Positions 6,945 through 31,831 of a stretch of DNA of 32,000 nt are shown piece by piece. The stretch lies in contig NZ_CP011304.1 in assembly GCF_000981785.2 (NCBI RefSeq), positions 3,600,001 through 3,632,000 of the forward strand, given 5' to 3'. This DNA is from Microcystis aeruginosa NIES-2549 (GTDB taxonomy: Bacteria; Cyanobacteriota; Cyanobacteriia; Cyanobacteriales; Microcystaceae). The notes below the pieces were generated by a model that was not told the origin of the DNA, did no database searches, and saw only the letters and a program-made list of their open reading frames with translations. The number at the start of each line of letters is the position of its first letter. Positions within the stretch are counted from its first letter, which is position 1. Position numbers and translations under genes: made by a program.

Positions 6945-6983
6945 TGTAAAGCTGGTACAACCTTTTTTCGCTCGATCCATGTT

Positions 6984-8258
6984 CTGGGAGGGGGACAAGC
7001 CAGCTAGAAGGTAGATAGAGCAAGCGATATAGCTCTTTGTCCCTTGATGTAATCTTTCAACCGATAGCGGCTAATTTGCATTAGCTCTTCTATATTTTTT
7101 TGGAACATTTGATGTAGCTGGAGCCAATGATAGAGATGTTGACCCACATAAAAACTGCTGTGTCTGCGTTGACCTTTATATCTTTTTTCAGGTCTTGTGA
7201 CATATTTTTGGATTCCCATATCCTTAATTTTTTTACCTTGTAGTGTGGCACTTGTATAGGCGATAGCTATAACAATTATCAGCTTTGATAAGTATTGGGG
7301 TGCTAATTGAGAACCTTCTAAGCTATAGCCTCCCGACTTAAAATCTCGGAACATCTCCTCAATATCAAATCTTTTTTGATAGGCAATTATTGCCGTCTCT
7401 AAATCCACAAAATTTGTCAGAATATACCAAGGTTCTTTTGTTTGAAAACCCCCATAGGTTTTTTTCCACTTACCAGCTAAGTTAAACTGTCCAAATCCCT
7501 GCTCTTTTGTAATATTGACATCATTCAAAAATAGTTGAGTTCCTGGACTTAAACCTAACTCTCTCATTTCTTGATAAATTCCTTCTTTTGTCTTGACATT
7601 TGTACTTTTTTTTTGTCTTAAGCAAAAGTATAAACTCTGCTTCTGAAGCCACTTTCCAAGACTGACCGAGCAAAATTCTCTATCTCCTAACACCACTATT
7701 TTATGACCTGATAGCACGGTCAATGTTTTTTCTAATACTCGCTGCTGTTCTTCGAGATTACTACTTCCTTTTTTATCTAATATCTCCCAATAGATTGGGA
7801 TGGCTCTCTTGTCATAAATTAGACTCACCATCAAGATATTTATTGCTCCCCAACTTGTCCGGTCTATGGCAATATACGCTAATCCTTTTGTTGTGAATCT
7901 CTGCTGCTGTTTTAACATCTCTTTTAGGCAGAGAAACCAGATTTTTTCAATATTCAGAATTTCCAGCTTTAAAAATCTTTTTAGTTTTTTTCTCCGACTC
8001 TCAAACAGGATTGGTATTGGTAAGGCTTCAGCTAATATCTCTAACTTAGCTTGCTTTAGTATTTGCAAGGTTCCAACTATCATTAACAACAGTAGATATC
8101 TGGCTCGTCCCAGTTCATTTTCTAACACTTTCTGGTATAGTTCACTTATCATTTTCGTTATTTAGGTCATATATGGTAAATATGACTTATCTTTTTTTGG
8201 AGTCTGTGTCTGTATTTTATGCTACATAAGCTTTTCAGCTTGCTTGTCCCCCTGTCAG
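6984..8258 (-). mobile_element. IS4-family insertion sequence inserted at a spacer/repeat junction
   Basis: Imperfect terminal IRs CTGGGAGGGGGACAAGCCAGC (6984-7004) and GCTTGCTTGTCCCCCTGTCAG (8238-8258). A 9-bp direct duplication ATCCATGTT occurs at 6975-6983 and 8259-8267. Confidence 0.9.
7004..8152 (-). CDS. IS4-family DDE transposase
   Basis: 382-aa ORF with DRTSWG.., ..LGDREF.. and the Y-x2-R-x3-E-x6-K signature (AYQKRFDIEEMFRDFK) typical of IS4-family transposases. Confidence 0.85.
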   Translation of the reverse strand: MISELYQKVLENELGRARYLLLLMIVGTLQILKQAKLEILAEALPIPILFESRRKKLKRFLKLEILNIEKIWFLCLKEMLKQQQRFTTKGLAYIAIDRTSWGAINILMVSLIYDKRAIPIYWEILDKKGSSNLEEQQRVLEKTLTVLSGHKIVVLGDREFCSVSLGKWLQKQSLYFCLRQKKSTNVKTKEGIYQEMRELGLSPGTQLFLNDVNITKEQGFGQFNLAGKWKKTYGGFQTKEPWYILTNFVDLETAIIAYQKRFDIEEMFRDFKSGGYSLEGSQLAPQYLSKLIIVIAIAYTSATLQGKKIKDMGIQKYVTRPEKRYKGQRRHSSFYVGQHLYHWLQLHQMFQKNIEELMQISRYRLKDYIKGQRAISLALSTF

Positions 8259-8264
8259 ATCCAT

Positions 8265-8953
8265 GTTTCAATCCCTAATAGGGTTTAAGATTAATTGGAA
8301 CCCTTGCCCACTGACGCACAAAAGCAATTAAACAAGTTTCAATCCCTAATAGGGTTTAAGATTAATTGGAACTTTCGCTTGATTGGTACTCCAGACAAGG
8401 AAAATGTTTCAATCCCTAATAGGGTTTAAGATTAATTGGAACTTTGGTGTTGCAAGAGTGTCCAGATTTGGTACGCCGGTTTCAATCCCTAATAGGGTTT
8501 AAGATTAATTGGAACGTGGTATGTGAGCATTACCCATGATCAGGATTCGTTTCAATCCCTAATAGGGTTTAAGATTAATTGGAACAGAACAAAATATTGT
8601 CTATTCTATTACGAGAATAGGTTTCAATCCCTAATAGGGTTTAAGATTAATTGGAACAAGTGCGATTGTGGTGGTCGGTGTTGCTGCAGTGTGGAGTTTC
8701 AATCCCTAATAGGGTTTAAGATTAATTGGAACTAATGTCAATATCTCTGGAAGTTGGCAAAATAAGGTTTCAATCCCTAATAGGGTTTAAGATTAATTGG
8801 AACCTTTTTCGCCATTGTCACGTCTTACACAGTCGATGTTTCAATCCCTAATAGGGTTTAAGATTAATTGGAACGTTATCAGTAATTAACCCATTTAGGA
8901 GTACCAAAAAATGACTGTTTCAATCCCTAATAGGGTTTAAGATTAATTGGAAC
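8265..8953 (-). CRISPR. CRISPR array segment B: 10 repeats
   Basis: Same 37-nt repeat, starting at 8265, 8336, 8406, 8479, 8549, 8621, 8696, 8767, 8838 and 8917. Spacers are 33-42 nt. Confidence 0.97.
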
Positions 8954-8970
8954 ATCTATTGTCCCTTAGC

Positions 8971-10664
8971 TAATTAGGGTTTGCTGAATAATGGTAAAAA
9001 CCTTACAGGAAAGGGCTTTTAGCTTGATTGAGAGCTTCCCAAATGCACTTAAATCTGCTAGAATCTCTTAAAACCCTTGCATCACCCTTGCATCTTCTCT
9101 AATTAGTGCTAATGTACCGTAAAAGCGAGTTACCCTCAACCCCACCAGAAAACTTCGAGCTGCCCTTTGAGGGGAAATTATCCCAAGACAATCGTTGGGT
9201 AATTATGGCCAACCTCATTCCCTGGTCAGAATTTGAAGCGGAATACGCATCACTTTTTTCAGAAGAAATGGGCACACCCGCCAAAACATTCAGGACAGCA
9301 CTCGGAGCATTAATTATTAAAGAAAAATTAGGAACAAGCGATAGAGAAACGGTAGAACAAATCAAAGAAAATCCTTATTTACAATACTTCTTGGGGTTTT
9401 CATCCTACAGCAATGAACCCCGGTTTGAAGCGTCAATGTTGGTTCACTTTCGAGAAAGAATCACTCTGGAACTAATTAATAAAGTGAATCGCTTTATGGT
9501 CAAAAATTCGAGAGAAATAAAAGAAGAAGAAAATACCGAAAAAAAGTTAGAGAGCGAAACCCAAAGTCAACCAGAAAATCGAGGTAAATTAATTTTAGAT
9601 GCCAGTTGTGCGCCCGCAGATATTAGTTATCCTACGGATTTAAACCTGTTAAATCAAGGAAGAAAACAAACCGAAAAAATTATTGATATTCTCTATGAAA
9701 CTTTAAAAGGAAAACTTGTTCAAAAACCGAGAACCTATCGTCTTCTAGCCAGAAAAAGTTATTTAGAAGTAGCGAAAAAAAGAAAACCTACCGTCAAACA
9801 AAGACGAAAAGCTCTGAAAAGACAACTGCAATATCTGAAAAGAAATCTCGACCATATTGAACAACTTTTAGCAGAAGGAGCCTCTCTACAAAGCTTGAAA
9901 AAAAGAGACTATAAGCTGTTATTAGTAGTCACAGAAGTTTATCGCCAACAACTCTGGATGTACCAAAATAACAAACAGAGTATTGAAGACAGAATTGTCA
10001 GCTTAACTCAACCCCACATCCGTCCGATAGTCAGAGGAAAAGCTGGAAAACCCGTAGAATTTGGGGCTAAATTCTCAGCAAGCTGTATAGATGGTTACAT
10101 ATTTTTAGACCGAATTAGTTGGGATAACTTTAATGAATCAGGAGATTTAAAAGCACAAATAGAAGCTTATTATGACTATACAGGATACTATCCAGAATCA
10201 GTTCATGTGGACAAAATTTATCGAACCAGAGAAAACCGAGCTTGGTGTAAAGAAAGGGGAATCAGAATCAGTGGTCCCCCATTAGGAAGACCAGCCAAAA
10301 ATGTTAGTAAAGAACAAAAGAAACAAGCTACCGATGATGAGAGGATTCGGAATTGTATAGAGGGCAAATTTGGACAGGGGAAAAGAAGATTTAGCTTAGG
10401 TAAAGTGATGGCTAAACTTCCTCATACTTCCTTTTCAGCGATTGCTATTACTTTTTTAGTCATGAATCTTTCTAACCTGTTGAGGCAGGTTTTTTGGGCT
10501 TTTTTATGTCTGAAATGGAAAAACAGCACTTTTTCTCGGTCAATGATTAGGATAAGTTATAACTTAAAAATTAATCAACAACTAAAGCTTATGCTTGTAG
10601 CTAAGTGAAATCATTGATTAAGAGACCTGTACTTTTCAATGACTTTTTCAGCAAACCCTAATTA
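8971..10664 (+). mobile_element. IS5/IS1182-superfamily insertion sequence inserted inside a spacer
   Basis: Perfect terminal inverted repeat TAATTAGGGTTTGCTGAA (8971-8988) and TTCAGCAAACCCTAATTA (10647-10664). It is flanked by spacer fragments of 17 nt (8954-8970) and 12 nt (10665-10676). The exact target duplication is ambiguous because the IR tip TAATTA is palindromic. Confidence 0.85.
9112..10608 (+). CDS. IS5/IS1182-like DDE transposase (DUF772-type N-terminus)
   Basis: About 498-aa ORF. The N-terminus MYRKSELPSTPPENFELPF..RWVIMANLIPWSEFEAEY..ENPYLQYFLGF is typical of this transposase group. ATG 9112 is preferred over the track's GTG 9106. Confidence 0.75.
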   Translation: MYRKSELPSTPPENFELPFEGKLSQDNRWVIMANLIPWSEFEAEYASLFSEEMGTPAKTFRTALGALIIKEKLGTSDRETVEQIKENPYLQYFLGFSSYSNEPRFEASMLVHFRERITLELINKVNRFMVKNSREIKEEENTEKKLESETQSQPENRGKLILDASCAPADISYPTDLNLLNQGRKQTEKIIDILYETLKGKLVQKPRTYRLLARKSYLEVAKKRKPTVKQRRKALKRQLQYLKRNLDHIEQLLAEGASLQSLKKRDYKLLLVVTEVYRQQLWMYQNNKQSIEDRIVSLTQPHIRPIVRGKAGKPVEFGAKFSASCIDGYIFLDRISWDNFNESGDLKAQIEAYYDYTGYYPESVHVDKIYRTRENRAWCKERGIRISGPPLGRPAKNVSKEQKKQATDDERIRNCIEGKFGQGKRRFSLGKVMAKLPHTSFSAIAITFLVMNLSNLLRQVFWAFLCLKWKNSTFSRSMIRISYNLKINQQLKLMLVAK

Positions 10665-10676
10665 CCAGCAATAGAA

Positions 10677-12581
10677 GTTTCAATCCCTAATAGGGTTTAA
10701 GATTAATTGGAACTAGAGCGTCTAGGAGGGCTGCTTATGGCGTAATCGTTTCAATCCCTAATAGGGTTTAAGATTAATTGGAACACTCGCTAAAGTCTTT
10801 GGGGGGAGATGTAGAAATGTTTCAATCCCTAATAGGGTTTAAGATTAATTGGAACATGGGTTAGTCTGTGGGGATAGTATAGAGAAAACTGGTTTCAATC
10901 CCTAATAGGGTTTAAGATTAATTGGAACACAGACTCAACCTTATCAGCAATCTCAACGGTATTGTTTCAATCCCTAATAGGGTTTAAGATTAATTGGAAC
11001 AAGATCGATCTGATCGAGCGATCATCTTCTTTCTTGTTTCAATCCCTAATAGGGTTTAAGATTAATTGGAACATTTAGTGGAATTGGCTAATCAAGCTGG
11101 TGATGGTTTCAATCCCTAATAGGGTTTAAGATTAATTGGAACTGCGCTTTTGATCTCAATAACTCAGGATTTAATAGGTTTCAATCCCTAATAGGGTTTA
11201 AGATTAATTGGAACGAAACCGAAGATTAATTTTATCAGACTCAAACCTGTTTCAATCCCTAATAGGGTTTAAGATTAATTGGAACTGCCGAAAGGCAAAT
11301 TCGCAACTTTTGCGGATTTGTTTCAATCCCTAATAGGGTTTAAGATTAATTGGAACAAGCTTTCTTTCAGTACCCGGCTCACAAGCCTGAGTTTCAATCC
11401 CTAATAGGGTTTAAGATTAATTGGAACTTATTTGATTCCGATAAGCTATTAGAGCAGTTACAAGTTTCAATCCCTAATAGGGTTTAAGATTAATTGGAAC
11501 CTTCTTGTCTGAGGATACTAAATAATCTAGGTTTTGTTTCAATCCCTAATAGGGTTTAAGATTAATTGGAACAACGGACGCGATCGGAACCGTAACGGGT
11601 GAGGGAATGTTTCAATCCCTAATAGGGTTTAAGATTAATTGGAACAAAAGACAAGCTTTTGGGGACTTGGCAAAAAGCCAAGTTTCAATCCCTAATAGGG
11701 TTTAAGATTAATTGGAACGACTTAAGGCCGTCATGGCAGACCGGGATGTAAATGTTTCAATCCCTAATAGGGTTTAAGATTAATTGGAACGCATTAGATG
11801 ATTTACTGCAATCCCTTGAGGGATTGTTTCAATCCCTAATAGGGTTTAAGATTAATTGGAACGCCGTCAAGGCTCAACCCTGCTAACTGGTAAACTCGTT
11901 TCAATCCCTAATAGGGTTTAAGATTAATTGGAACTAGATGGTTTTTTAGGGTGTCTAGAATACTGTTTAGGTTTCAATCCCTAATAGGGTTTAAGATTAA
12001 TTGGAACCCTTCCTTGCTTTAAGCTTGGCAGCGTACTTGTCTGTTTCAATCCCTAATAGGGTTTAAGATTAATTGGAACCTTAATAGCGAGTCACCCTTG
12101 TCGGGGTTAGTCATTGTTTCAATCCCTAATAGGGTTTAAGATTAATTGGAACGGAAATTTCCCCACTGAGAAAGCAGTCCATTAGCGTTTCAATCCCTAA
12201 TAGGGTTTAAGATTAATTGGAACCGTTGACGGCTGCCGTCCGGGAACCGGCGATGAGAGTTTCAATCCCTAATAGGGTTTAAGATTAATTGGAACAGTCT
12301 TCTGGCAATTAGGCCGCGCCCTAAAATTGTGTTTCAATCCCTAATAGGGTTTAAGATTAATTGGAACCCTCACTTTTATACGATTTTATTAATCAATGCC
12401 TAGTTTCAATCCCTAATAGGGTTTAAGATTAATTGGAACAAATTACGGTTTTTTCTGGATCGGCGCGAAGGTTGTTTCAATCCCTAATAGGGTTTAAGAT
12501 TAATTGGAACGAGATCACTTTTACTAATATCCTACTCCAAAAAAGTTTCAATCCCTAATAGGGTTTAAGATTAATTGGAAC
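10677..12581 (-). CRISPR. CRISPR array segment C (leader-proximal): 27 repeats
   Basis: Same 37-nt repeat, first at 10677 and last at 12545-12581. Spacers are 33-36 nt. It lies adjacent to the leader and cas2. Confidence 0.97.
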
Positions 12582-12814
12582 CGCCCAGTGGTAAAAGCCA
12601 TACGCTATGGGATTTTCAAGGTTCGTATGCGCCGCACCTGCAATAAACCAATCATACAGCAAGTGACCCAGTTCTTCAAGACCCCGCAAAACCTTACGGG
12701 ATAAGGTGCGCCCCGCGTTGGAAAGGAAAATCATCTCGAATCTATATTCCATAAGCTTTTCAGCCACCACATAATAGTTAAGAATTTTTACAGCTACCCA
12801 GAAGCGCAACCGAG
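12582..12814 (-). promoter_or_regulatory. CRISPR leader with a candidate sigma70-type promoter (-35 TTGAAG 12679..12674, 17-nt spacer, -10 TATGAT 12656..12651)
   Basis: Non-coding 233 nt between the cas2 stop and the first repeat. The promoter hexamers were read on the minus strand, and the predicted start lies about 60-65 nt upstream of the first repeat. Confidence 0.4.
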
Positions 12815-14705: not shown

Positions 14706-15539
14706 CTATCTTTTATCTTTAGAAATTCTGCGAGTCATCCCCATTCCCATCGTGGTTTTCCGTCCCACTCCTGCATAGAGGGCAAAGTCCGCCAGTGCAT
14801 TAATCGCTTTAATCTTTGCGGGTTCCACCTCTCCCAAAAGACGATAGTGAATCTCGCCCACACAACCGATCGACTGGTTTTTATAGGCTTCATCGGTTAA
14901 TTTCGTTTGAATATCGAAGAAACTGGGAAAAATCGACTCTAGGGCAATAGAATCGAAGGAGATACCGCTATAGCGATTCCAACGACTGAGAAGGCTATTA
15001 AACACCAGTTCCCGCGTCGGTAAGGCACTATCGAATTTTCCCTGCCGGAAGGTGACGGGGGTAGCGAAAAGGAAATCAAATTCCCGATTCGTTTCCGAGG
15101 CGTTTTCATACAGGTATTGATAAGTACAAGAGTTCGCCCAGGGTTGAACCGATTGCGGGGTGGCGAGGACACTGGTGATAACCAGATCGGCGGAACCGAG
15201 ATGCCAGGGTTGTTTTGGATTGAGATTCAACCAGAGCGGGGTTAATTTACCGAATAATCGGTCATCGAGCAGAGAAATCCGCCACCAGCAGGGAGTTTCG
15301 GGCGCGATCTCCCGTTCGTGTCGCCAGCGTGGGAAATTTATTGTTTTTCTCCTGGACTGCATCTGTAGTGGCGATAAGGTAAAGGCTTTATCCGCATCCG
15401 ATGCGTGTAGAATGTTCCCTAATTCCTGATCGACACTACTGACAAGGGTAAGGAATAGCGCATGAAGGTGTCGTCCGGTGAGAAAATTCGGATAGATCGG
15501 CGATCGGGGTGTGAGATTAAGAACGAGACTATAGGGCAT
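14706..15539 (-). CDS. cas6: CRISPR repeat endoribonuclease Cas6
   Basis: 277 aa with the C-terminal glycine-rich loop GVGRKTTMGMGM typical of Cas6. The start ATG overlaps the upstream stop (TAATG). Confidence 0.85.
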   Translation of the reverse strand: MPYSLVLNLTPRSPIYPNFLTGRHLHALFLTLVSSVDQELGNILHASDADKAFTLSPLQMQSRRKTINFPRWRHEREIAPETPCWWRISLLDDRLFGKLTPLWLNLNPKQPWHLGSADLVITSVLATPQSVQPWANSCTYQYLYENASETNREFDFLFATPVTFRQGKFDSALPTRELVFNSLLSRWNRYSGISFDSIALESIFPSFFDIQTKLTDEAYKNQSIGCVGEIHYRLLGEVEPAKIKAINALADFALYAGVGRKTTMGMGMTRRISKDKR

Positions 15540-16126
15540 TAACTTAATCGGGCCTTGGCAAAAATTTGTCCGGGGGTTAGGGTTAAATCGGGGAGGAGAA
15601 TATCGCTCATCTCGTCATCGCCTTTTTTAATCGCCGGGGGTGCATCGGGATAGAAAATTGTGATCTGCTTGGCCTGGGGATCGACGATCCAGACGCGACT
15701 GACTCCCGCTTTTAGGTAGTCCACGGCTTTTTCGCTCAGGCTGCTGAAAGATTGTTCCGGAGAAATAATTTCGATGACTAATTCCGGGGGAACGGGACAA
15801 GCTTCATCGGTGAGGGTAATATCTCCTAACCTTTCTGGGGAAATGTAGAGGAGATCGGGAACGGGACACCAATCCCGATCGTTTTTGCTTAGGACGATCG
15901 CCCATTCGATTCCCACTTCTCCCCGTCCTTGATTCCAGCGATCGAGTAGGAGAAATAAAGCACCGGTTAAACGAGAATGAAAGAATTTCGGTGACATTTT
16001 CGGGATCGCTTCTCCATCGACTAATTCATAGGTAATATCGCCATCGGGAGGGGTTAGTGAGAGAAATTCCGGTAAAGTGAGGGATTTAGAAGAGATAAGA
16101 GTCATGGTATATAGTGTAGTGAACAT
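15539..16126 (-). CDS. Uma2-family (DUF820) PD-(D/E)xK putative endonuclease embedded in the cas operon
   Basis: 195 aa with YELVDGE.., ..PDLLYIS.., ..PELVIEIISPE.. and ..YLKAGVSRVWIVDP.. motifs, as in the cyanobacterial Uma2 family. Its stop overlaps the cas6 start by 1 nt. Confidence 0.8.
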   Translation of the reverse strand: MFTTLYTMTLISSKSLTLPEFLSLTPPDGDITYELVDGEAIPKMSPKFFHSRLTGALFLLLDRWNQGRGEVGIEWAIVLSKNDRDWCPVPDLLYISPERLGDITLTDEACPVPPELVIEIISPEQSFSSLSEKAVDYLKAGVSRVWIVDPQAKQITIFYPDAPPAIKKGDDEMSDILLPDLTLTPGQIFAKARLS

Positions 16127-20597: not shown

Positions 20598-21116
20598 TTA
20601 TTTATCTCCTTTAGATGAAAGTTTACGAACCAATTCAGGAAACCGCGTATAAAGAGAAAGTTTGAGATTATAAGTTAAATTCTTCCACTCTTTTTCTTGT
20701 GCATAATTACCTACTTGATCAGGATTAGCAAAATAGGCATAAGATTTGGTGATGTCGTCAGCATAAAAAACAAGCCATTTTTTACCCGAATTATCAACTT
20801 CTTCTCTATTAGTGATTTCTAGCTTATTTTCTAGCATTTTTTTTGCTTGTTCGTAGATAAAGTAATTATCAGGATTGTGATATAGCCTTGCTTGAACACT
20901 AATTTTCTTTTCATCTCCTAATGTCGCATAATAACTAAAAGCAACAGGATCATCTACTTTTTCTATTAATTTACTTACCTCACGTTCTGCATCTTCTGGC
21001 TTCATTAATTTTTTAGCAGTACTTTCTAAAGATTGGGCAAAAGCGTAAGTTAATCCTGTCAATGCGGCCACGTCTTCATATAATTTTGCCCGTTTCCAAA
21101 GTGAATCGATAGTCAT
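20598..21116 (-). CDS. Candidate internally translated small subunit (Cas11-like), in frame within the large-subunit gene
   Basis: In-frame ATG at 21116..21114 preceded by AAGGAG (21127..21122) with a 5-nt spacer. It would give the 172-aa helical C-terminal product MTIDSLWKRAKLYEDV..SSKGDK. Confidence 0.45.
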   Translation of the reverse strand: MTIDSLWKRAKLYEDVAALTGLTYAFAQSLESTAKKLMKPEDAEREVSKLIEKVDDPVAFSYYATLGDEKKISVQARLYHNPDNYFIYEQAKKMLENKLEITNREEVDNSGKKWLVFYADDITKSYAYFANPDQVGNYAQEKEWKNLTYNLKLSLYTRFPELVRKLSSKGDK

Positions 21117-23129
21117 AGTTTCTCCTTGAATATCTTGGATGATGGTTTGCAAATATTGTTCCCTAACTCGTTCCAATAATAAACGGTCAGAAATACTGGA
21201 AGCTTTAAGTAATGTATAGTCTGCTAAGTAGGGTGAATCTTGTTGTACATAACGAATCGCATCTCCTAGTTTAAGGTTAATATCTTTCCCACTGACGATA
21301 ATTGATTGATCATAACCTTCTATCAAACCTTTAATAAATATTAATTGACGGCTTACTAAAACTTTTTCTGTTCTTTGAAGCTGAAGAACAAATTTAAAAT
21401 CTTTAATAACCTCTAAGGGAAAAATCGAGGCAACTTTTGCTAAAGCATATTGAAACTGTCCTAGTTTTTTTGAAGCGGTATCTCCTGTGATTGTTTTTTC
21501 AGAAGTTAGGGCAATGTAACAACCCGAAGATAAATGTACTTCTTTATTGGTTAGCATTCGCAAGTAGTCTTTGATTTTAACTTTCGTTACACCTCTATCA
21601 TCTTGAGATTCAAGTCGTAAGATAATACTATCATCCGTTACTTTTAAGGGGGAGGCAAACGATAATACAGAACAAGAAGAGCAAATGAAAGGTCTATCTT
21701 CACTAGAGGATGATTGACGACGTTGAGACGGTCGCTCGAACATAAATCTAGCTACTCTCCATCGCACAGTTTTAGCATCTAAAGTTACTCCGCAAGAGTA
21801 ACAAAAATCTTTACCATCGTCTCCCGCTGTCCTTGCTGCTAAAATTTTTGGGTTAATCGTTAAAAGCGGTTCTGGAATGGTTTCGAGTTTTGGATTTTCT
21901 AACAAACGATACATCTCTAATATACATTGAGTGAAAATATCGCCACGAGTCGAGTTAATTTGTTCTGTGGCAGTTTTGTTAAAAGATTTAGCGATCGCCT
22001 GAATTGGCTTCAATAGATCTGTTTGTTTTTGTTTTTCTATAAACTCAAACGGATTTCCGTCTGATTCTTCTAGAAATCTCTGCTTCTCCTCGATCGAATC
22101 TTCCTGAAAAATAATTTGTGACTCTATTTTATCCTTTTGCTTCTGTAATTTGCTAACTTGAGCTTTTGACAAACCAGTTTTTCCTAACTGCTCATCAAGG
22201 TTTCTTCTTTCATGATAAATAGCTCGTTGCTCATCTAATAATTTAGACAAAACTTTCTGAAAATAATCTCTATATTTATTAAACTCTTTAGCTTGCATTT
22301 CCTGCTTGCTTTTTAGCTTCTTTTCAGTGGACTCTAAATCTTTCGAGTTAAGTTCTTCGGATTTAATTTGCTCAATAAGTTGAACGATCTCAGTCTCACG
22401 CTTCTCTTGGCGATCCTTTACTTGCTCGAAAATAGCTAAATAAAAAGCCGCTAACACCTTGGCTTGATCTCTGGTAATTATCGGAATTTCTAGGGTGCTA
22501 AAACCTCGTCCCGCTAAGGGAACACTTTTTAGCATTGTGATAAAAGTTTGCATTAATCCTGATAGCTGATATTGAAAATCACCATAGATAGAAAAAATAA
22601 CTTTCGTGATAAATTCTATCCAAAGCTCCTCTATATTATGTGATTGTTGAGTTTGTGGAATAAAAATCTGCACATGGTAATTACTTTCATGCAGGGAAAC
22701 AATCTGATATTTTTTTTGCAAAAACTCTAAAAACCGATCAATCGTGCTTTCATGAGTTAATTTTGCTTGTAGCTCTCCCGGTGACGGTGATTTGTACACA
22801 AGCTGTATTTCACCTATCTCTCGTTCTCGATAAAAAACTTGATTCCCTTGAAACGTGGGTTTAATGAACTCGCTTTCTTTTTGAGGTTGAGAAAGTCGTA
22901 ACTGTCTAACCAATTTAGGACAATCAAAAGTTTTGGCGATCGCTATCGCTCTTGGATCGTCAGCTAAAGCGGAAATCAATGTCGAGTCGGTTTGAGCGAT
23001 CGCATTTGCGGTCAAAGCACTCAATAAGATAGTAATTTCAAGTTCGCTAATTTCTTCCGAAGTCGTAACCGCTTTTGTATCTTGCTCTGGAGAAACATTC
23101 TCGAAAAGTGAAAGTTGTTTAATCGACAT
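20598..23129 (-). CDS. cas10d: Type I large subunit, Cas10d/Csc3-like or Cas8-like, lacking an HD domain
   Basis: 843 aa, first large gene of the effector operon. It has a zinc-finger-like CYSCG..(about 40 aa)..CSSCS. There are only 7 His and no His-Asp dipeptide, and no GGDD motif. It carries a K/E/Q-rich coiled-coil segment. The call rests on position and size. Confidence 0.6.
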   Translation of the reverse strand: MSIKQLSLFENVSPEQDTKAVTTSEEISELEITILLSALTANAIAQTDSTLISALADDPRAIAIAKTFDCPKLVRQLRLSQPQKESEFIKPTFQGNQVFYREREIGEIQLVYKSPSPGELQAKLTHESTIDRFLEFLQKKYQIVSLHESNYHVQIFIPQTQQSHNIEELWIEFITKVIFSIYGDFQYQLSGLMQTFITMLKSVPLAGRGFSTLEIPIITRDQAKVLAAFYLAIFEQVKDRQEKRETEIVQLIEQIKSEELNSKDLESTEKKLKSKQEMQAKEFNKYRDYFQKVLSKLLDEQRAIYHERRNLDEQLGKTGLSKAQVSKLQKQKDKIESQIIFQEDSIEEKQRFLEESDGNPFEFIEKQKQTDLLKPIQAIAKSFNKTATEQINSTRGDIFTQCILEMYRLLENPKLETIPEPLLTINPKILAARTAGDDGKDFCYSCGVTLDAKTVRWRVARFMFERPSQRRQSSSSEDRPFICSSCSVLSFASPLKVTDDSIILRLESQDDRGVTKVKIKDYLRMLTNKEVHLSSGCYIALTSEKTITGDTASKKLGQFQYALAKVASIFPLEVIKDFKFVLQLQRTEKVLVSRQLIFIKGLIEGYDQSIIVSGKDINLKLGDAIRYVQQDSPYLADYTLLKASSISDRLLLERVREQYLQTIIQDIQGETMTIDSLWKRAKLYEDVAALTGLTYAFAQSLESTAKKLMKPEDAEREVSKLIEKVDDPVAFSYYATLGDEKKISVQARLYHNPDNYFIYEQAKKMLENKLEITNREEVDNSGKKWLVFYADDITKSYAYFANPDQVGNYAQEKEWKNLTYNLKLSLYTRFPELVRKLSSKGDK

Positions 23130-23216
23130 AGTGCTGTCCTTCCTTGATTTCTTGTCTTGAGGGAGTAGGCTGAAAAGTGCCTACTTCCGCTCTCTAGAGG
23201 CGTTATTGCCAGGATT

Positions 23217-23360
23217 CTAGGTTAAATCAGCGAAAATTCTGACTTCGCCTTCAGAATCCAAGACTGGAGACTGCCTCAGTTCTTTGATTTGGCACTGAAG
23301 AAGCTCGATTTGGTCTTGAATAATTTCGATTTGCTGGTGAATATCGTCAACATTAGGCAT
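23217..23360 (-). CDS. Small 47-aa coiled-coil protein, first ORF of the cas transcription unit
   Basis: ATG 23360 is preceded by GGGAGG with a 6-nt spacer. The product is MPNVDDIHQQIEIIQDQIELLQCQIKELRQSPVLDSEGEVRIFADLT, with heptad-like I/L spacing. The longer track ORF (start 23426) lacks an SD. Confidence 0.5.
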   Translation of the reverse strand: MPNVDDIHQQIEIIQDQIELLQCQIKELRQSPVLDSEGEVRIFADLT

Positions 23361-23473
23361 TACTGACCTCCCTTGTATTTTTATTGACGTGGGTATCCAT
23401 CTGGGGTCAGCTTTGCTATAATGCAAGTACAGAAATTTTTGTATAGATAGCCGACCCCAAAACGGCTTCTTTT

Positions 23474-23502
23474 AATATAGATCACTGTTCACGTCGTTAC
23501 AA
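23474..23502 (-). promoter_or_regulatory. Candidate cas operon promoter (-35 TTGTAA 23502..23497, 17-nt spacer, -10 TATATT 23479..23474)
   Basis: This is the best sigma70-like hexamer pair on the minus strand upstream of the small ORF and large-subunit gene. It is a motif-based prediction only. Confidence 0.35.
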
Positions 23503-23543
23503 GTGCGAGGCTAAAAAAGCCAATTATTCTCTTAAGCATATCA

Positions 23544-23552
23544 TGGTAAGAT
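23544..23552 (+). promoter_or_regulatory. Candidate extended -10 (TGGTAAGAT) for the mini-CRISPR RNA
   Basis: A TGN plus -10-like hexamer ending about 4 nt before psiR1. A second extended -10, TGCTATAAT, lies at 23414-23422. No good -35 was seen for either. Confidence 0.25.
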
Positions 23553-23555
23553 AAT

Positions 23556-23652
23556 CGATCACTGAACCCCTGATACTAAGAGGGATTGAAACGTCACGAG
23601 TGGTGAGGCTACTGTTTAGCCTTTTCATCGAATCCCTATTAGGGATTGAAGC
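23556..23652 (+). ncRNA. Degenerate mini-CRISPR (psiR1 - short psi-spacer - psiR2); candidate CreR/CreA-like regulatory crRNA-like RNA
   Basis: 23581-23592 AGGGATTGAAAC equals the last 12 nt of the crRNA-sense repeat. 23631-23652 AATCCCTATTAGGGATTGAAGC matches 20/22 nt of the repeat's 3' half. Both copies retain a hairpin. The orientation is opposite to the main array. Confidence 0.55.
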
Positions 23653-23653
23653 C

Positions 23654-23712
23654 AGACAGGGCAATATGCGATCTTTGTCTATGAGGTTGTCCATGCTACT
23701 CTGTCTTTTTTT
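23654..23712 (+). terminator. Candidate intrinsic terminator downstream of the mini-CRISPR
   Basis: AGACAGGG (23654-23661) pairs with CTCTGTCT (23699-23706), including one G-U, and is followed by T6 (23707-23712). The loop is long (37 nt), so confidence is moderate. Confidence 0.35.
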
Positions 23713-23893
23713 GTTCACTCCAAATATCTGCCGTTTTAGATCGCCCGAACTCCCCACAACGATGTGGCGGTGACACCATATCGTCAGTGGTATATCCTCC
23801 TCATTTCCTCTTACCATAGCTTTTTGAGATCATTTATCATTACAATATAGGCATCGTAGCACAAATATTCTAAAACTACAAGTACATTTTCAG

Positions 23894-24751
23894 GTGAACC
23901 GCAAAAAAGAAACAATTACACTGTCAATCCCTCCCGGCACGAAGGAGAAGCTAGAGGCGATCGCCCGACACTTTAACATCTTTTGGGGGAAAAGTCCTAG
24001 TCCGTCAGGTCTAATCGCCGCCATCGCCGAAGGAGAACTGGAGATCGGTGAATCTTTTACCCTCTCGACGAAGCAGGTCGAAGCGATTAAGGAAGCGATC
24101 AACCGTCTGGTGCGATCGGGTCACATCAAACAGGCCCAGACTCTTTCTAATTTTCTTTTAGAAAAGGGAAATCTCTCCCCTCAAGAGCGTCGGGAGATTT
24201 CCGAACAGGTGAGTCAGTACGATCGCGATTGGCGGCTCGCGGTGGAGAGCTATATCCATGACAGGCAAGCTTTTCGGGTAATGTACAAAGATTCTCAGGG
24301 ACAGACCCTAGAATTTACTGTTCGCTCTGCCGAGATCATGTTTCGGGAAAAAGAATTCTATCTGGATATCTGGTGTGAGGAAACTGAGGGACTGTCAGAA
24401 GAAGATAAAAGAGACTTTCCCGAACTTGTTCACAATCGCTGTCTTAAATTCTCTCGTATTCAAAGCCTGATCCCGATCGAAGAACCATGGCGAGACAGTC
24501 TCGATTTTATAAAAGTACAATTACAATTAGAAAAAGACCTCGTGAAGGCTTATGAAAGGAAGGCAAGGGATATCGACGACCGAGAGGTAAACGGAAAAAG
24601 GATTATAACCCGTAAAGTCTCTAGTCATTTTTGGTTAATTCGGGAGATTTTACCCTATGGAGATCGCTGTATTGTACTTACACCAGAGCCATTACGCAAC
24701 CGGATCAAACAAATGTTATTAAATCTTCATCAACAATACGAATCGGGGTAA
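23894..24751 (+). CDS. RHH-WYL domain transcriptional regulator, divergent from the cas operon (Sll7009-like CRISPR regulator class)
   Basis: 285 aa with a GTG start. The N-terminal ETITLSIPPGTKEKLEAIARHF looks like ribbon-helix-helix. The central ..FRVMYKD..EFTVRSAEIMFREKEFYLDIWC..RCLKFSRIQS.. fits the WYL pattern. The C-terminal ..ILPYGDRCIVLTPEPLRNRI.. is WCX-like. Confidence 0.7.
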   Translation: MNRKKETITLSIPPGTKEKLEAIARHFNIFWGKSPSPSGLIAAIAEGELEIGESFTLSTKQVEAIKEAINRLVRSGHIKQAQTLSNFLLEKGNLSPQERREISEQVSQYDRDWRLAVESYIHDRQAFRVMYKDSQGQTLEFTVRSAEIMFREKEFYLDIWCEETEGLSEEDKRDFPELVHNRCLKFSRIQSLIPIEEPWRDSLDFIKVQLQLEKDLVKAYERKARDIDDREVNGKRIITRKVSSHFWLIREILPYGDRCIVLTPEPLRNRIKQMLLNLHQQYESG

Positions 24752-24859: not shown

Positions 24860-25222
24860 ATGAAGCCCTATTCTTTAGACTTGCGACAAAAGATCATCGA
24901 GACCTACGAGGAGAATAACCTCTCACAACGTGAGTTAGCCAAAAGATTTAGAGTAACTTTAAGCTTTATCCAGAAACTAATCAAGCAGTGGCGTGAAACA
25001 GGAAATCTAAATCCCCGACCGCATGGTGGAGGACAAAAACTCAAGCTTAAGAGCGACGAAATTATCTTGCTGGGCGATTTAGTCCAAGAAAAGAAAGATG
25101 CCACCTTAGACGAGTTAAGAAAACAAATTGAGGAAAAAACACAGACGGTGGTGAGTAACTCAACAATCAGTAGAATTTTAAAACGGCTAAATTTAACTCA
25201 AAAAAAAAAGCTTACACGCTAG
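24860..25222 (+). CDS. IS630 transposase, N-terminal HTH part (orfA)
   Basis: 120 aa. MKPYSLDLRQKIIETYEENNLSQRELAKRF.. is a typical IS630 HTH. It ends just after an A10 tract (25200-25209). Confidence 0.85.
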   Translation: MKPYSLDLRQKIIETYEENNLSQRELAKRFRVTLSFIQKLIKQWRETGNLNPRPHGGGQKLKLKSDEIILLGDLVQEKKDATLDELRKQIEEKTQTVVSNSTISRILKRLNLTQKKKLTR

Positions 25223-25826
25223 GGAAAGAGACACGGAAAGAGTGCAAAAATTAAGAGAAGAATATTGGGAGAAAATCCGAGATGTTAGAGCGGAAGATTT
25301 GGTTTTCGTTGACGAGTCTGGCTCTAATCTAGGGATGACAAGACTTTATGGCAGGGCTGAAAAAGGTCAGAGAGTGTATGATTCAGTTCCGTTAAACCGA
25401 GGAAAAAACGTCACGATAATTGGAGCGATAGCGCTCAAAGGCTTGCTGGCTTTTATCAATGTATTTGGAGCCGCAAATGGTTTAATATTTGAAGCATTTA
25501 TTGCTACATTATTAGTTCCAAACTTGTGGAAAGGAGCTTGTGTATTAATGGATAATGCTTCGATTCATCAAAAAGAAACCCTCGAACCAATTCTTCAAGA
25601 AGTCGGTGCTAGACTGAAGTTTTTACCTCCCTATTCTCCCGATTTTTCTCCCATTGAAAACTGTTGGTCGAAAGTGAAAATACTGATTCGTTCTATGTCA
25701 CCTCGTACCTATGCTGATCTAGAAAAAGCGATCGTTCAAGCCTTTAGTCAGATTACATTGCGAGACATCCATCACTGGTTTACCCATTGTTGCTATTGCG
25801 ATACCCCTTTTAAAGAGCCTACCTAG
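25197..25826 (+). CDS. IS630 transposase, DDE catalytic part (orfB), in the +1 frame relative to orfA
   Basis: The frame is open from 25197 (LKKKSLHARERDTE..). Motifs are DESG, MDNASIHQ and LPPYSPDFSPIENCW. Deleting one A from the A10 tract would fuse orfA and orfB (..LTQKKSLHA..). Confidence 0.8.
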   Translation, partial: LKKKSLHARERDTERVQKLREEYWEKIRDVRAEDLVFVDESGSNLGMTRLYGRAEKGQRVYDSVPLNRGKNVTIIGAIALKGLLAFINVFGAANGLIFEAFIATLLVPNLWKGACVLMDNASIHQKETLEPILQEVGARLKFLPPYSPDFSPIENCWSKVKILIRSMSPRTYADLEKAIVQAFSQITLRDIHHWFTHCCYCDTPFKEPT

Positions 25827-26429: not shown

Positions 26430-26625
26430 GACAGGCAAAAGGCAATAGGCAATAGGCAAAAGGAGCAATAGATAATCAGTTTTTAATAACCAGATTTAGT
26501 ATAAACAGTGAACAGTAATCAGTAATCAGGGATAAAGATGAAGATAAATAAATAAATAACTTAAAACTTACATCTGATAACTTAAAACTTACATCTGATA
26601 ACTGATAACTGATAACTGATAACTG
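26430..26625. repeat. Mosaic of 7-nt-periodic tandem repeats plus a 21-nt direct repeat
   Basis: Units are AGGCAAA/AGGCAAT (about 26431-26465), AACAGTG/AACAGTA/ATCAGTA (about 26504-26530), AACTTAAAACTTACATCTGAT x2 (26558-26599) and CTGATAA x4 (about 26595-26625). The last array abuts the permease stop codon. Confidence 0.9.
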
Positions 26626-27492
26626 TTAAACCGTGCCTTTAAATAAACCTTGGGGACGGAATAATAACAGCAAGATCATAATTAATAAAGCCACGGCTAA
26701 TTTATAATCAGAACCAATTAAGGGGACACTAATTTCTTGGGCAACACCAATAATTAAAGCACCAGCAATCGCTCCGTAGGGATTACCAATACCACCTAAA
26801 ATCACGGACGCAAACATGGGTAAGATTAAAAACCAGCCCATATTGGGACGTACTCCCCCGGTAATTAATCCGAACATCCCTCCGGCTAAAGCAGTTAAAA
26901 CTCCCGTGATTATCCATGTCCAGAAAACAACCCATTCGACGTTAATTCCGGTTACTCTAGCTAAATCGGTGCTGTCAGCTACGGCACGCATCGCCTTACC
27001 GATTTTGGTTTTTTGTAATAACAAATGGAGGGCAATAATAACTATAATTGCCAAACCAATGACTAACAAACGATCAAAAGCTACTTTAATCCCCAAAATT
27101 TCTGTAGCGGGCATCACAGGCAGATCGTAGCGTTGATTACTGCCGCCCCAAATCATTAAAATACCATTGCGAAGAAATAAAGCCAAACCGATCGAAATAA
27201 TAATTAAAGTGGTAGAATCAGCCCGTCGATCGCGCATAGGTTTCCACAATAATCTCTCGGCAACGAGCATAGCAATAGCTGTCACTGCTGCCCCCACCAG
27301 CATCGCTAACCAGAGATTAATCCCTTGAGCATTTACCACCCAAGTTATGTAAGCACCCAAAGTCATAAAATCGCCGTGGGCAAAATTAGACAGACGCAAA
27401 ATGCCACAGGTAAGGGTTAACCCGACGGCAGCCAGAGCAATAATACTGCCGACGGCTAAACCATTGAATAAAAGTTGCGGTGTATCCATCAA
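26626..27492 (-). CDS. Branched-chain/neutral amino acid ABC transporter permease (LivH/NatD-type)
   Basis: 288 aa and polytopic. ..LFNGLAVGSIIALAAVGLTLTCGILRLSNFAHGDFMTLGAY.. is characteristic of the LivH family. Confidence 0.85.
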   Translation of the reverse strand: MMDTPQLLFNGLAVGSIIALAAVGLTLTCGILRLSNFAHGDFMTLGAYITWVVNAQGINLWLAMLVGAAVTAIAMLVAERLLWKPMRDRRADSTTLIIISIGLALFLRNGILMIWGGSNQRYDLPVMPATEILGIKVAFDRLLVIGLAIIVIIALHLLLQKTKIGKAMRAVADSTDLARVTGINVEWVVFWTWIITGVLTALAGGMFGLITGGVRPNMGWFLILPMFASVILGGIGNPYGAIAGALIIGVAQEISVPLIGSDYKLAVALLIMILLLLFRPQGLFKGTV

Positions 27493-29394: not shown

Positions 29395-29516
29395 GAATTA
29401 TGAATTATGAATTATGAATTATGAATTGGGGAGTGGGGAGTATTTTCAGTAAACAGTAAACAGTAAACAGTGAACTGATAACTGATAACTGATAACTGAT
29501 AACTGATAACTGATTC
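29395..29516. repeat. Cluster of heptamer tandem repeats
   Basis: GAATTAT x4 (29395-29422), GGGGAGT x2 (29428-29441), CAGTAAA x3 (29447-29467) and CTGATAA x5 (29475-29509). It lies between the convergent purK and the SGNH hydrolase gene. Confidence 0.95.
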
Positions 29517-31800: not shown

Positions 31801-31831
31801 CCAAATTTTCGATGAAAAGGAGTTAAGGGCA

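Follow-up and report, generated by a model that had tools for sequence, protein, structure and literature searches.

Degenerate mini-CRISPRs (CRISPR, short palindromic repeats that are clustered and regularly interspaced) that repress cas promoters are established in type I-B, I-E, and V-A systems and have been noted in types I-C, I-D, I-F, and I-U (Liu et al., 10.1101/2023.03.10.532045). The CreR units described there lie in cas loci and consist of a first degenerate repeat (psiR1) that keeps the 5' handle, a second (psiR2) that keeps the 3' hairpin, and a pseudo-spacer partly complementary to a site at an effector-gene promoter flanked by a protospacer adjacent motif (PAM); the resulting autorepression is expected to sense the load of CRISPR RNAs (crRNAs) and anti-CRISPRs. 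Such mini-arrays are described as widespread in I-B, I-D, I-E, and I-F loci (Liu et al., 10.1101/2023.03.10.532045; Shmakov et al., PMC10120712). The class 1 mini-arrays among them were delimited by computation as units of two repeats within cas loci (Shmakov et al., 10.1101/2023.03.03.530964 / PMC10120712); their spacers have partial (at least 10 nucleotides [nt]), seed-anchored, PAM-flanked matches to cas promoters, and about 19% of bacterial I-B loci contain one. In the CreTA and CrePA modules, known from haloarchaeal I-B and from Acinetobacter and Pseudomonas I-F systems, the CreA RNAs have the same RNA architecture and guide the Cascade complex, through limited pairing, to repress an adjacent and divergent promoter; their defining partner is a toxin, either the CreT RNA or the CreP protein. 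CRISPR-derived noncanonical guides with which the effector represses a promoter through partial complementarity are also represented by tracr-L (Streptococcus pyogenes II-A) and scaRNA (Francisella II-B), which differ in belonging to class 2, in their RNA architecture, and in having neither Cas6 processing nor a mini-array.

Here, we analyzed a 32,000-nt stretch of Microcystis aeruginosa NIES-2549 (contig NZ_CP011304.1, positions 3,600,001 to 3,632,000; hereafter the window, numbered from its first letter), where a degenerate repeat-spacer-repeat element, the psi unit, lies upstream of the cas operon at 23556-23652 on the + strand. The unit resembles CreR, the class 1 mini-arrays, and CreA in RNA architecture and presumed mode of action, with a PAM-flanked partial target over a predicted promoter, and we consider it probable that it is a CreR/CreA-class regulatory mini-CRISPR that guides Cascade to repress its own cas promoter. 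A preliminary description of this DNA had already suggested a CreR/CreA-like regulatory crRNA, and the conservation, the PAM-flanked target, and the guide-target covariation reported below, together with the anatomy of the unit, support that suggestion. As far as sequence goes, the unit appears to have all the features that mark the CreR class, namely the degenerate repeat pair, the handle and hairpin, and the PAM-flanked seed target.

A degenerate repeat pair with an intact handle

The two degenerate copies of the array repeat at 23556-23652 point away from the cas operon, and a terminator-like hairpin follows them. The first copy, psiR1 (23556-23592, + strand), has a hairpin (CCCT...AGGG) and keeps the 8-nt 5' handle, ATTGAAAC (23585-23592), intact; its last 12 nt (23581-23592, AGGGATTGAAAC) are an exact copy of the end of the 37-nt repeat, which reads GTTCCAATTAATCTTAAACCCTATTAGGGATTGAAAC in the crRNA sense. 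The pseudo-spacer, psiS, occupies 23593-23630, and its guide positions 1-19 (23593-23611) match the target. The second copy, psiR2 (23631-23652, AATCCCTATTAGGGATTGAAGC), is the hairpin half of the repeat, identical to its 3' half at 20 of 22 positions, and is formed by AATCCC-TATTA-GGGATT (23631-23647) with a degenerate handle-equivalent, ATTGAAGC (23645-23652); within it, CCCTATTAGGGATTGAAGC at 23634-23652 has a single mismatch to the repeat. Aligned in register with the whole 37-nt repeat, psiR1 agrees at 22 positions and psiR2 at 24, nearly all of them in the 3' halves. Both copies retain the repeat hairpin when folded, and an A-to-T change gives psiR2 a perfect AATCCC/GGGATT stem. These two copies are the only repeat-like matches on the + strand, all 116 array repeats being on the - strand, and the chance expectation is 0.03 for a 19-mer with up to 3 mismatches and 0.27 for a 12-mer with up to 1 mismatch. 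The handle ends are 60 nt apart in the unit, whereas the array mean is 71.9 nt.

The terminator-like hairpin (23654-23712, + strand) lies directly 3' of psiR2 and has the stem AGACAGGG...CUCUGUCU followed by T7; a simple terminator scan made no call at this position because the loop exceeds 8 nt. The preliminary description had claimed the exact 12-nt repeat end with its handle, the 20/22 identity of psiR2, a Cas6-type hairpin in both diverged copies, handle spacings of 60 and about 72 nt, and a hairpin with a T-run, and all of these are borne out by the exact match, the register alignment, the folding, and the measured distances. It had also pointed to two extended -10-like elements upstream. 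Both are present, and the nearer, TGGTAAGAT (23544-23552), would belong to a putative promoter of the unit at 23524-23552 (+ strand), with a weak -35 box TTATTC (23524-23529) and a 17-nt spacer; transcription is predicted to start at about 23559, the 5' edge of psiR1. A consensus promoter scan made no call for this putative promoter at 23524-23552. The farther element, TGCTATAAT (23414-23422), is more likely part of the cas transcript's 5' untranslated region (UTR) than of a promoter serving the unit.

A PAM-flanked cognate target

The predicted target, read on the non-target (+) strand at 23493-23513, consists of the PAM GTC (23493-23495) and the protospacer GTTACAAGTGCGAGGCTA (23496-23513), so that a crRNA with the window guide, GTCACGAGTGGTGAGGCTA, would pair with the - strand at 23496-23513. 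An ungapped scan of the window with psiS gave chance-level matches only, and exact psiS words of at least 9 nt were few elsewhere in the window, the longest being 11 nt (31810-31820, - strand, from the 3' part of psiS) and none falling in the 5' seed. The target emerged only when positions 1-24 of psiS were aligned locally, with gaps allowed, to the upstream 300 nt of every unit in the collection of related loci described below. Of 29 loci, 26 have their best alignment beginning at psiS position 1 (one of these at position 2), and the trinucleotide preceding it in the 26 is GTC in 17, GTT in 7, GTA in 1, and AGT in 1, the last being the alignment from position 2. Two of the remaining three loci obey the same rule of PAM and position 1 once anchored by hand. 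Targets lie 67-107 nt from the psiR1 handle, with a distance of 118 nt in L031, which is among three loci re-anchored by hand. Cognate alignments score 23.6 on average, compared with 14.4 +/- 2.4 for noncognate guide-locus pairs (99th percentile, 20).

GTC, GTT, and GTA agree with GTH, the interference PAM determined experimentally for Microcystis I-D (GTN for Synechocystis; PMC10212523), and with the GTT motif that precedes the protospacers of DR1 arrays (PMC4428289). The 113 spacers of the window had no match in a phage collection, and a query with the whole array matched phage-borne repeats only; the PAM was therefore taken from the literature and from the target of a phage mini-array rather than from the window's own spacers. 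Guides are wholly different between genera, each matching its own locus. The same correspondence is seen within Microcystis, where 12 copies were compared, 8 of them obtained through a metagenome scan: psiS with CTGACAAGT accompanies a target with CTGACAAGT or CTGATAAGT, and psiS with GTCAC accompanies a target with GTAAC or GTTAC.

Conservation across cyanobacteria

Homologues of the window's Cas8b are common in cyanobacteria, where they are annotated merely as hypothetical, and we used them to collect 63 loci, one genome per species. In many of these, a handle-like ATTGAAA[CG] lies on the strand opposite cas8b, 430-610 nt upstream of it (820 nt in L062). The common layout comprises psiR1 (a hairpin and GGGATTGAAAC), 28-50 nt, psiR2 (AATCCCTAnnAGGG with a degenerate handle), a GCCAGAG-N5-CTCTGGC hairpin, and a T-run (T6), and the whole unit is divergent from cas8b and in most cases 370-950 nt upstream of it. 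Units were seen in Microcystis, Pseudanabaena, Prochloron, Nostoc, Halothece, Leptothoe, Symploca, Microcoleus, and Roseofilum, among others. A covariance model built from 17 units with a hand-specified structure scored 25 loci and the window at 62-105 bits, every match being on the strand divergent from cas8b, compared with at most 51 bits for ordinary array units. The window unit itself (23566-23716, + strand) scored 78.4 bits (E ~1e-9), and Rfam offered only a sub-threshold CRISPR-DR5 match of 28 bits on psiR2. Lower-scoring variants in Pseudanabaena and Chamaesiphon were added from at least 7 loci by a pattern search, and with both approaches the unit is found in at least 32 of the approximately 58 loci with enough upstream sequence. 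The Cas8b proteins of the unit-bearing loci are only 50-60% identical.

Three helices of the unit have 82% of cells paired, compared with at most 52% in slid controls, and helix 3, the terminator, reaches 94%. There is little covariation in these helices, the stems being mostly conserved, and RNAalifold on the raw MAFFT alignment recovered the psiR2 hairpin alone. The handle of psiR1 is invariant in the 12 Microcystis copies and nearly invariant across genera, whereas the handle-equivalent of psiR2 varies between strains and drifts across loci. Thus, the first handle is kept and the second is free to change, an asymmetric decay like that described for CreR and CreA. The preliminary description had considered that random decay or absence in related loci would mark the unit as a relic; instead, position, orientation, and architecture are conserved across genera.

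A gene with WYL and WCX domains is divergent from cas8b in 55 loci, in two architectures. In one, it lies 126-380 nt from cas8b, with neither a psi unit nor a small open reading frame (ORF) between them. In the other, the distance exceeds 650 nt, and the psi unit, the target promoter, and a small ORF lie between the two genes. Since the unit, the target promoter, and the small ORF co-occur, they look like one inserted cassette.

A guide with one extra nucleotide

In 18 of 21 lineages, the alignment gains 4-9 matches within 20 positions when one guide nucleotide is left out, and skipping a target nucleotide instead brought no comparable gain in these lineages. The skipped base falls at positions 5-7 in about 8 lineages and at positions 10-13 in about 7, and never at positions 2-3, 8-9, or 15-16 as the sole solution. 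Cas7 flips out every sixth base of a guide. The skipped positions lie near these flipped ones, with L002, L033, L050, and L069 deviating from exactly 6 or 12. As the similarity goes on past the gap, pairing there seems to be under selection. The bulge and the mismatches may replace the short match of the known CreR RNAs as a safeguard against self-cleavage.

The distal part of the guide is also peculiar. Positions of about 13-31 of the window's psiS can fold into an internal hairpin (GAGGCUA/UAGCCUU), with a folding energy of -12.6 kcal/mol against -4.5 +/- 3.0 for the 113 real spacers, and a distal-guide hairpin starting at positions 11-14 is frequent across loci. In length, the psi unit usually falls 10-12 nt short of an array unit. 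Shortening by multiples of 6 nt was considered and rejected, the differences (0, about -10 to -12, and -19 to -26) being too scattered.

Predicted promoters and the small ORF

The target coincides with a predicted promoter that faces the small ORF and cas8b (23474-23502, - strand), with a -35 box TTGTAA (23502-23497), a 17-nt spacer, and a -10 box TATATT (23479-23474); the -35 box covers protospacer positions 2-7. An independent consensus scan of 23050-23950 detected this site, and no other promoter-like one, on the - strand of the intergenic region. A -10-like hexamer, often TGn-extended, lies on the cas strand 9-18 nt beyond the PAM in 19 of 21 other lineages, and in several loci the -35 consensus TTGACA itself includes the PAM complement GAC. 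The putative promoter of the unit lies on the + strand just downstream of the protospacer and takes the form TTGACA-N17-(-10) in many loci.

A structured 5' UTR is predicted for the cas transcript (about 23340-23468, UTR 23361-23467, - strand; z = -3.8). It starts at a conserved hairpin (23450-23466), which pairs with the conserved GCUGACCCC block; the hairpin region GGGGUCGGCU pairs with a conserved block, AGCUGACCCC. In Microcystis, Prochloron, and Symploca, this last block resembles the complement of the region around the ribosome-binding site (RBS), GGAGGUCAG. We also considered whether TGCTATAAT and this hairpin (23414-23476) form a separate + strand gene for a small RNA or CreT-like RNA and rejected this as the principal interpretation because in several genera no T-run follows the hairpin, which the - strand -10 box directly adjoins.

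The first cistron after the targeted promoter, between it and cas8b, is a small ORF of 47 amino acids (aa) (23217-23360, - strand) with the RBS GGGAGG. Its product is acidic, bears a coiled coil at the N terminus and the motif D-x-EGE-V-x-x-x-AD at the C terminus, and had no family in Pfam, PHROGs, PADLOC, or NCBIfam. Small proteins of this unannotated family (36-61 aa) are encoded directly upstream of cas8b, behind a strong RBS, in more than 20 loci and share the N-terminal coiled coil and the C-terminal motif P-V-x-D-x-EGE-V-I-S-Y-A-D-W. Conservation of this motif indicates that the ORF is protein coding and hence not a CreT-type RNA. A terminator scan and inspection of hairpins revealed no intrinsic terminator between the small ORF and cas8b.

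Other elements occur in the same interval. A hairpin of the GGGAGTAGG-loop-CCTACTCCC type lies at about 23150-23185 (- strand), 40-50 nt upstream of the cas8b start codon, and is conserved in L020, L022, L023, L039, L047, L056, and L059, with or without a psi unit; having no T-run, it is no obvious terminator. Small winged-helix-like ORFs occupy the position of the small ORF in L005, L006, L010, and L026. Toxin-antitoxin-like pairs (DUF433-like and PIN-like) lie between the WYL/psi region and cas8b in L021, L026, L027, and L030, and a nucleotidyltransferase and HEPN-like pair is inserted upstream of cas8b in L055.

The host CRISPR-Cas locus

The main array (1305-12581, - strand) holds 116 repeats in three blocks, split by two transposase genes (DDE_Tnp_1, and DDE_Tnp_1_2 with DUF772) at 7004-8152 (- strand) and 9106-10608 (+ strand). 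The cas operon lies upstream of the array and on its strand, from 23129 down to 12815. NCBIfam and Pfam matched Cas3, Cas6, Cas4, Cas1 (I-D type), and Cas2 and left the first three genes of the operon unmatched. PADLOC models matched these three over their full length as Cas8b (PDLC01527, 1221 bits), Cas7b (PDLC01388), and Cas5b (PDLC01389), and the core and helicase domains of Cas3 are present at the locus according to NCBIfam, Pfam, and PADLOC. The large-subunit gene, cas8b (20598-23129, - strand), is the first cas gene of the effector operon, and cas6 (14706-15539, - strand; Cas6d-like) encodes the expected cutter of psiR1 and psiR2. No protein of the window matched the Cas10d or Csc families in NCBIfam or Pfam. 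On these protein matches, the effector is type I-B (Cas8b, Cas7b, and Cas5b with an HD-helicase Cas3) and not I-D; only Cas6 (Cas6d model), Cas1 (cas1_CYANO), and the repeat are I-D-like. The I-D-like label of the preliminary description does not hold for the effector, since Cas10d, Csc1, and Csc2, which define that type, are absent from the NCBIfam and Pfam matches and PADLOC gives Cas8b, Cas7b, and Cas5b. The repeat of the window is the "DR1" that Yang et al. placed with Microcystis "I-D" loci (PMC4428289).

The gene for the WYL/WCX-domain regulator (23894-24751, + strand) lies downstream of the psi unit and is followed by an IS630-like element (24860-25826, + strand; helix-turn-helix [HTH] and DDE_3, two ORFs). 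A gene for a putative restriction endonuclease of the Uma2 family (15539-16126, - strand) sits inside the cas operon between cas3 and cas6. The interval between cas2 and the first repeat (12582-12814) is presumably the array leader; an 84-aa ORF starting with TTG is listed over it, overlaps the first repeat, and is probably no gene. Tandem heptamer arrays (ATAACTG-like, GAATTAT, CAGTAAA, and AACTGAT) occupy intergenic positions outside the CRISPR locus, at 26556-26629 and 29395-29514.

A proposed autorepression circuit

Transcription, processing, binding, repression, and co-transcription of cas8b are the steps that we infer from these observations. The unit's own promoter would drive its transcription on the + strand, which would stop at the hairpin with T7. 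Cas6 would cut at the base of both hairpins and release a crRNA-like RNA of about 60 nt (23585-23644), with the 8-nt handle ATTGAAAC, 38 nt, and the psiR2 hairpin, approximately 12 nt below the length of a normal crRNA. This RNA would load into the type I-B Cascade (Cas8b, Cas7b, Cas5b, and Cas6), and its 5' end would pair at 23496-23513 beside the PAM GTC. With incomplete pairing, due to the mismatches and the extra guide nucleotide, Cascade may bind without licensing Cas3. The bound complex would cover the -35 box of the promoter from which the small ORF and cas8b are presumably co-transcribed, just upstream of the -35 box of the unit itself, and less Cas would be made. The crRNAs of the array, with its 116 repeats, would compete with the psi-crRNA for Cascade, and repression would hold while free Cascade abounds and lift when these crRNAs or anti-CRISPRs occupy the complex.

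It is important to consider that several observations weigh against this circuit. The promoter calls are consensus matches, and in the region of the window 3 sites were found where 1.9 are expected by chance. The seed of the window is mismatched at positions 3 and 6, with only 8 of the first 10 positions matching without a gap, and weaker binding is therefore expected, going by the well-studied type I systems. Furthermore, we found no documented precedent in the literature for a one-nucleotide guide bulge in Cascade binding. The regulated product may not be Cas, as the first gene under the targeted promoter is the small ORF. Finally, cas8b might keep a separate promoter, independent of the targeted one, either as a remnant or near the conserved hairpin, because loci without the unit exist, with the WYL gene 126-380 nt away, and cas8b can have another promoter there.

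Alternative explanations

The serious alternative is an addiction module like CrePA or CreTA, in which the unit is an antitoxin (CreA) that silences a toxic 47-aa ORF, so that the toxin would be set free if Cascade were lost or inhibited, and Cas autoregulation would be secondary or absent. Its guide-target mechanism is the same as that of autorepression, and both may hold. Loci without the unit generally lack the small ORF too, which is cassette behavior, and the ORF, behind a strong RBS, comes first after the targeted promoter. Protein toxins repressed by Cascade exist, such as CreP in Acinetobacter I-F, and the stretches between mini-arrays and cas genes are enriched in toxin-antitoxin genes (Shmakov et al., PMC10120712). 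However, the acidic coiled-coil product matches no toxin family in Pfam, PHROGs, or PADLOC, and L008 has a related small ORF with no detectable unit. Moreover, the first gene varies, being HTH-like in L010, L026, and L038 and of other kinds in Pseudanabaena and L062, whereas the cas operon is constant, and no terminator was found between the ORF and cas8b. We therefore consider it rather unlikely that the unit serves chiefly as an antitoxin.

Two further explanations dispense with a guide altogether. The likeness between psiS and the upstream site could reflect two copies of a protein operator, for example of the WYL regulator, or the unit could serve the WYL gene as a 5' leader or attenuator. 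In accordance with this, the WYL gene always adjoins the unit, the Microcystis psiS and target both contain the inverted repeat GGCTA..AGCC, and many genera share a motif RAGGCWA at psiS positions 12-19. An operator nevertheless predicts neither that the likeness begins exactly at the handle-spacer junction nor that GTH occurs on the target side only, and the target of most genera has no inverted repeat. As to a leader, a strong terminator ends the unit, the WYL gene has promoter-like sites of its own at 23770-23840, and loci without the unit retain the gene; this pair of explanations is thus improbable. A nonfunctional, slowly decaying remnant of a former flanking or inverted array would account for the degenerate 5' halves of both repeats, and the insertion sequence elements do show that the locus has been rearranged. 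Against a relic stand the conservation of position, orientation, handle, hairpins, and terminator among genera with no more than 50-60% identity in Cas8b, a decay so selective that it retains handle and hairpins, and a cognate PAM-flanked target in each locus, with covariation. This cross-genus conservation and these cognate targets rule out a decaying relic for practical purposes, and we hold it to be very improbable. Autorepression of the cas promoter remains the reading that we prefer.

Comparison with known systems and significance

The element belongs to an already known kind, and its variant features are the bulged guide, the small-ORF cassette, and the WYL neighbor. The uninterrupted guide-target stretch of CreR is 15 nt in Salmonella enterica, whereas here 17-25 nt are broken by the extra nucleotide and mismatches. 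The host also differs from those of CreR, combining an I-B effector of cyanobacteria with a Cas6, a Cas1, and a repeat of I-D type, as does the neighborhood, in which a small ORF precedes cas8b and a WYL regulator adjoins. Whereas the partner of CreA is a toxin, no toxicity is predicted for the small ORF, and its promoter seems to serve the cas operon as well. The I-B examples of Shmakov et al. have unit and target beside cas6, whereas here they lie upstream of cas8b; their main text mentions neither cyanobacteria nor WYL. More than half of the loci examined in the window's Cas8b family carry the unit, against about 19% of the bacterial I-B loci in that study. The preliminary description had known of no such RNA at a cyanobacterial I-D-like locus. 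This remark stands insofar as cyanobacteria are not mentioned for such elements in the main texts of the CreR and mini-array papers or in a recent I-D review; it does not stand insofar as the kind is already described and the effector is I-B.

Microcystis, a major cyanobacterium that forms blooms and produces toxins, has very large CRISPR arrays, and how it controls Cas expression is poorly understood. A self-targeting guide with a WYL regulator beside it offers a testable circuit. Furthermore, more than 30 natural guide-target pairs form a comparative set on the pairing needed for I-B Cascade repression without cleavage; the set covers whether a guide bulge is tolerated or required and bears on the design of native type I CRISPR interference in cyanobacteria. 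If true, the bulge would be a distinct design rule for type I Cascade binding without Cas3 cleavage, and the conserved family of guide-target pairs and this rule are the parts most worth following. A wider proposal, which seems possible but doubtful to us, is that the single-nucleotide bulge keeps the guide safe, that the unit and the small ORF form a transferable autoregulatory or addiction cassette inserted between the WYL gene and cas8b, and that Microcystis phages whose mini-arrays have the same repeat might exploit the same Cascade.

Mini-arrays in Microcystis phages

Two Microcystis phages, MaMV-CH01 (PP681321.1; L064, 605-717) and Ma-LMM01 (NC_008562.1; L065, 601-780), carry mini-CRISPR arrays with the window's 37-nt repeat. 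Comparison of the phage spacers with the host promoter region gave no convincing seed match. The repeat copy is exact in MaMV-CH01, the copy in Ma-LMM01 ends in A, and the Ma-LMM01 repeats are annotated merely as a "56 bp repeat unit". In the related phage Ma-LMM01, the promoter region that lies just upstream of the mini-array is matched by the 39-nt spacer of MaMV-CH01 at 39 of 39 positions, next to a GTT PAM, compared with only 35 of 39 in the equivalent region of MaMV-CH01 itself, which suggests inter-viral conflict or hijacking of the host Cascade.

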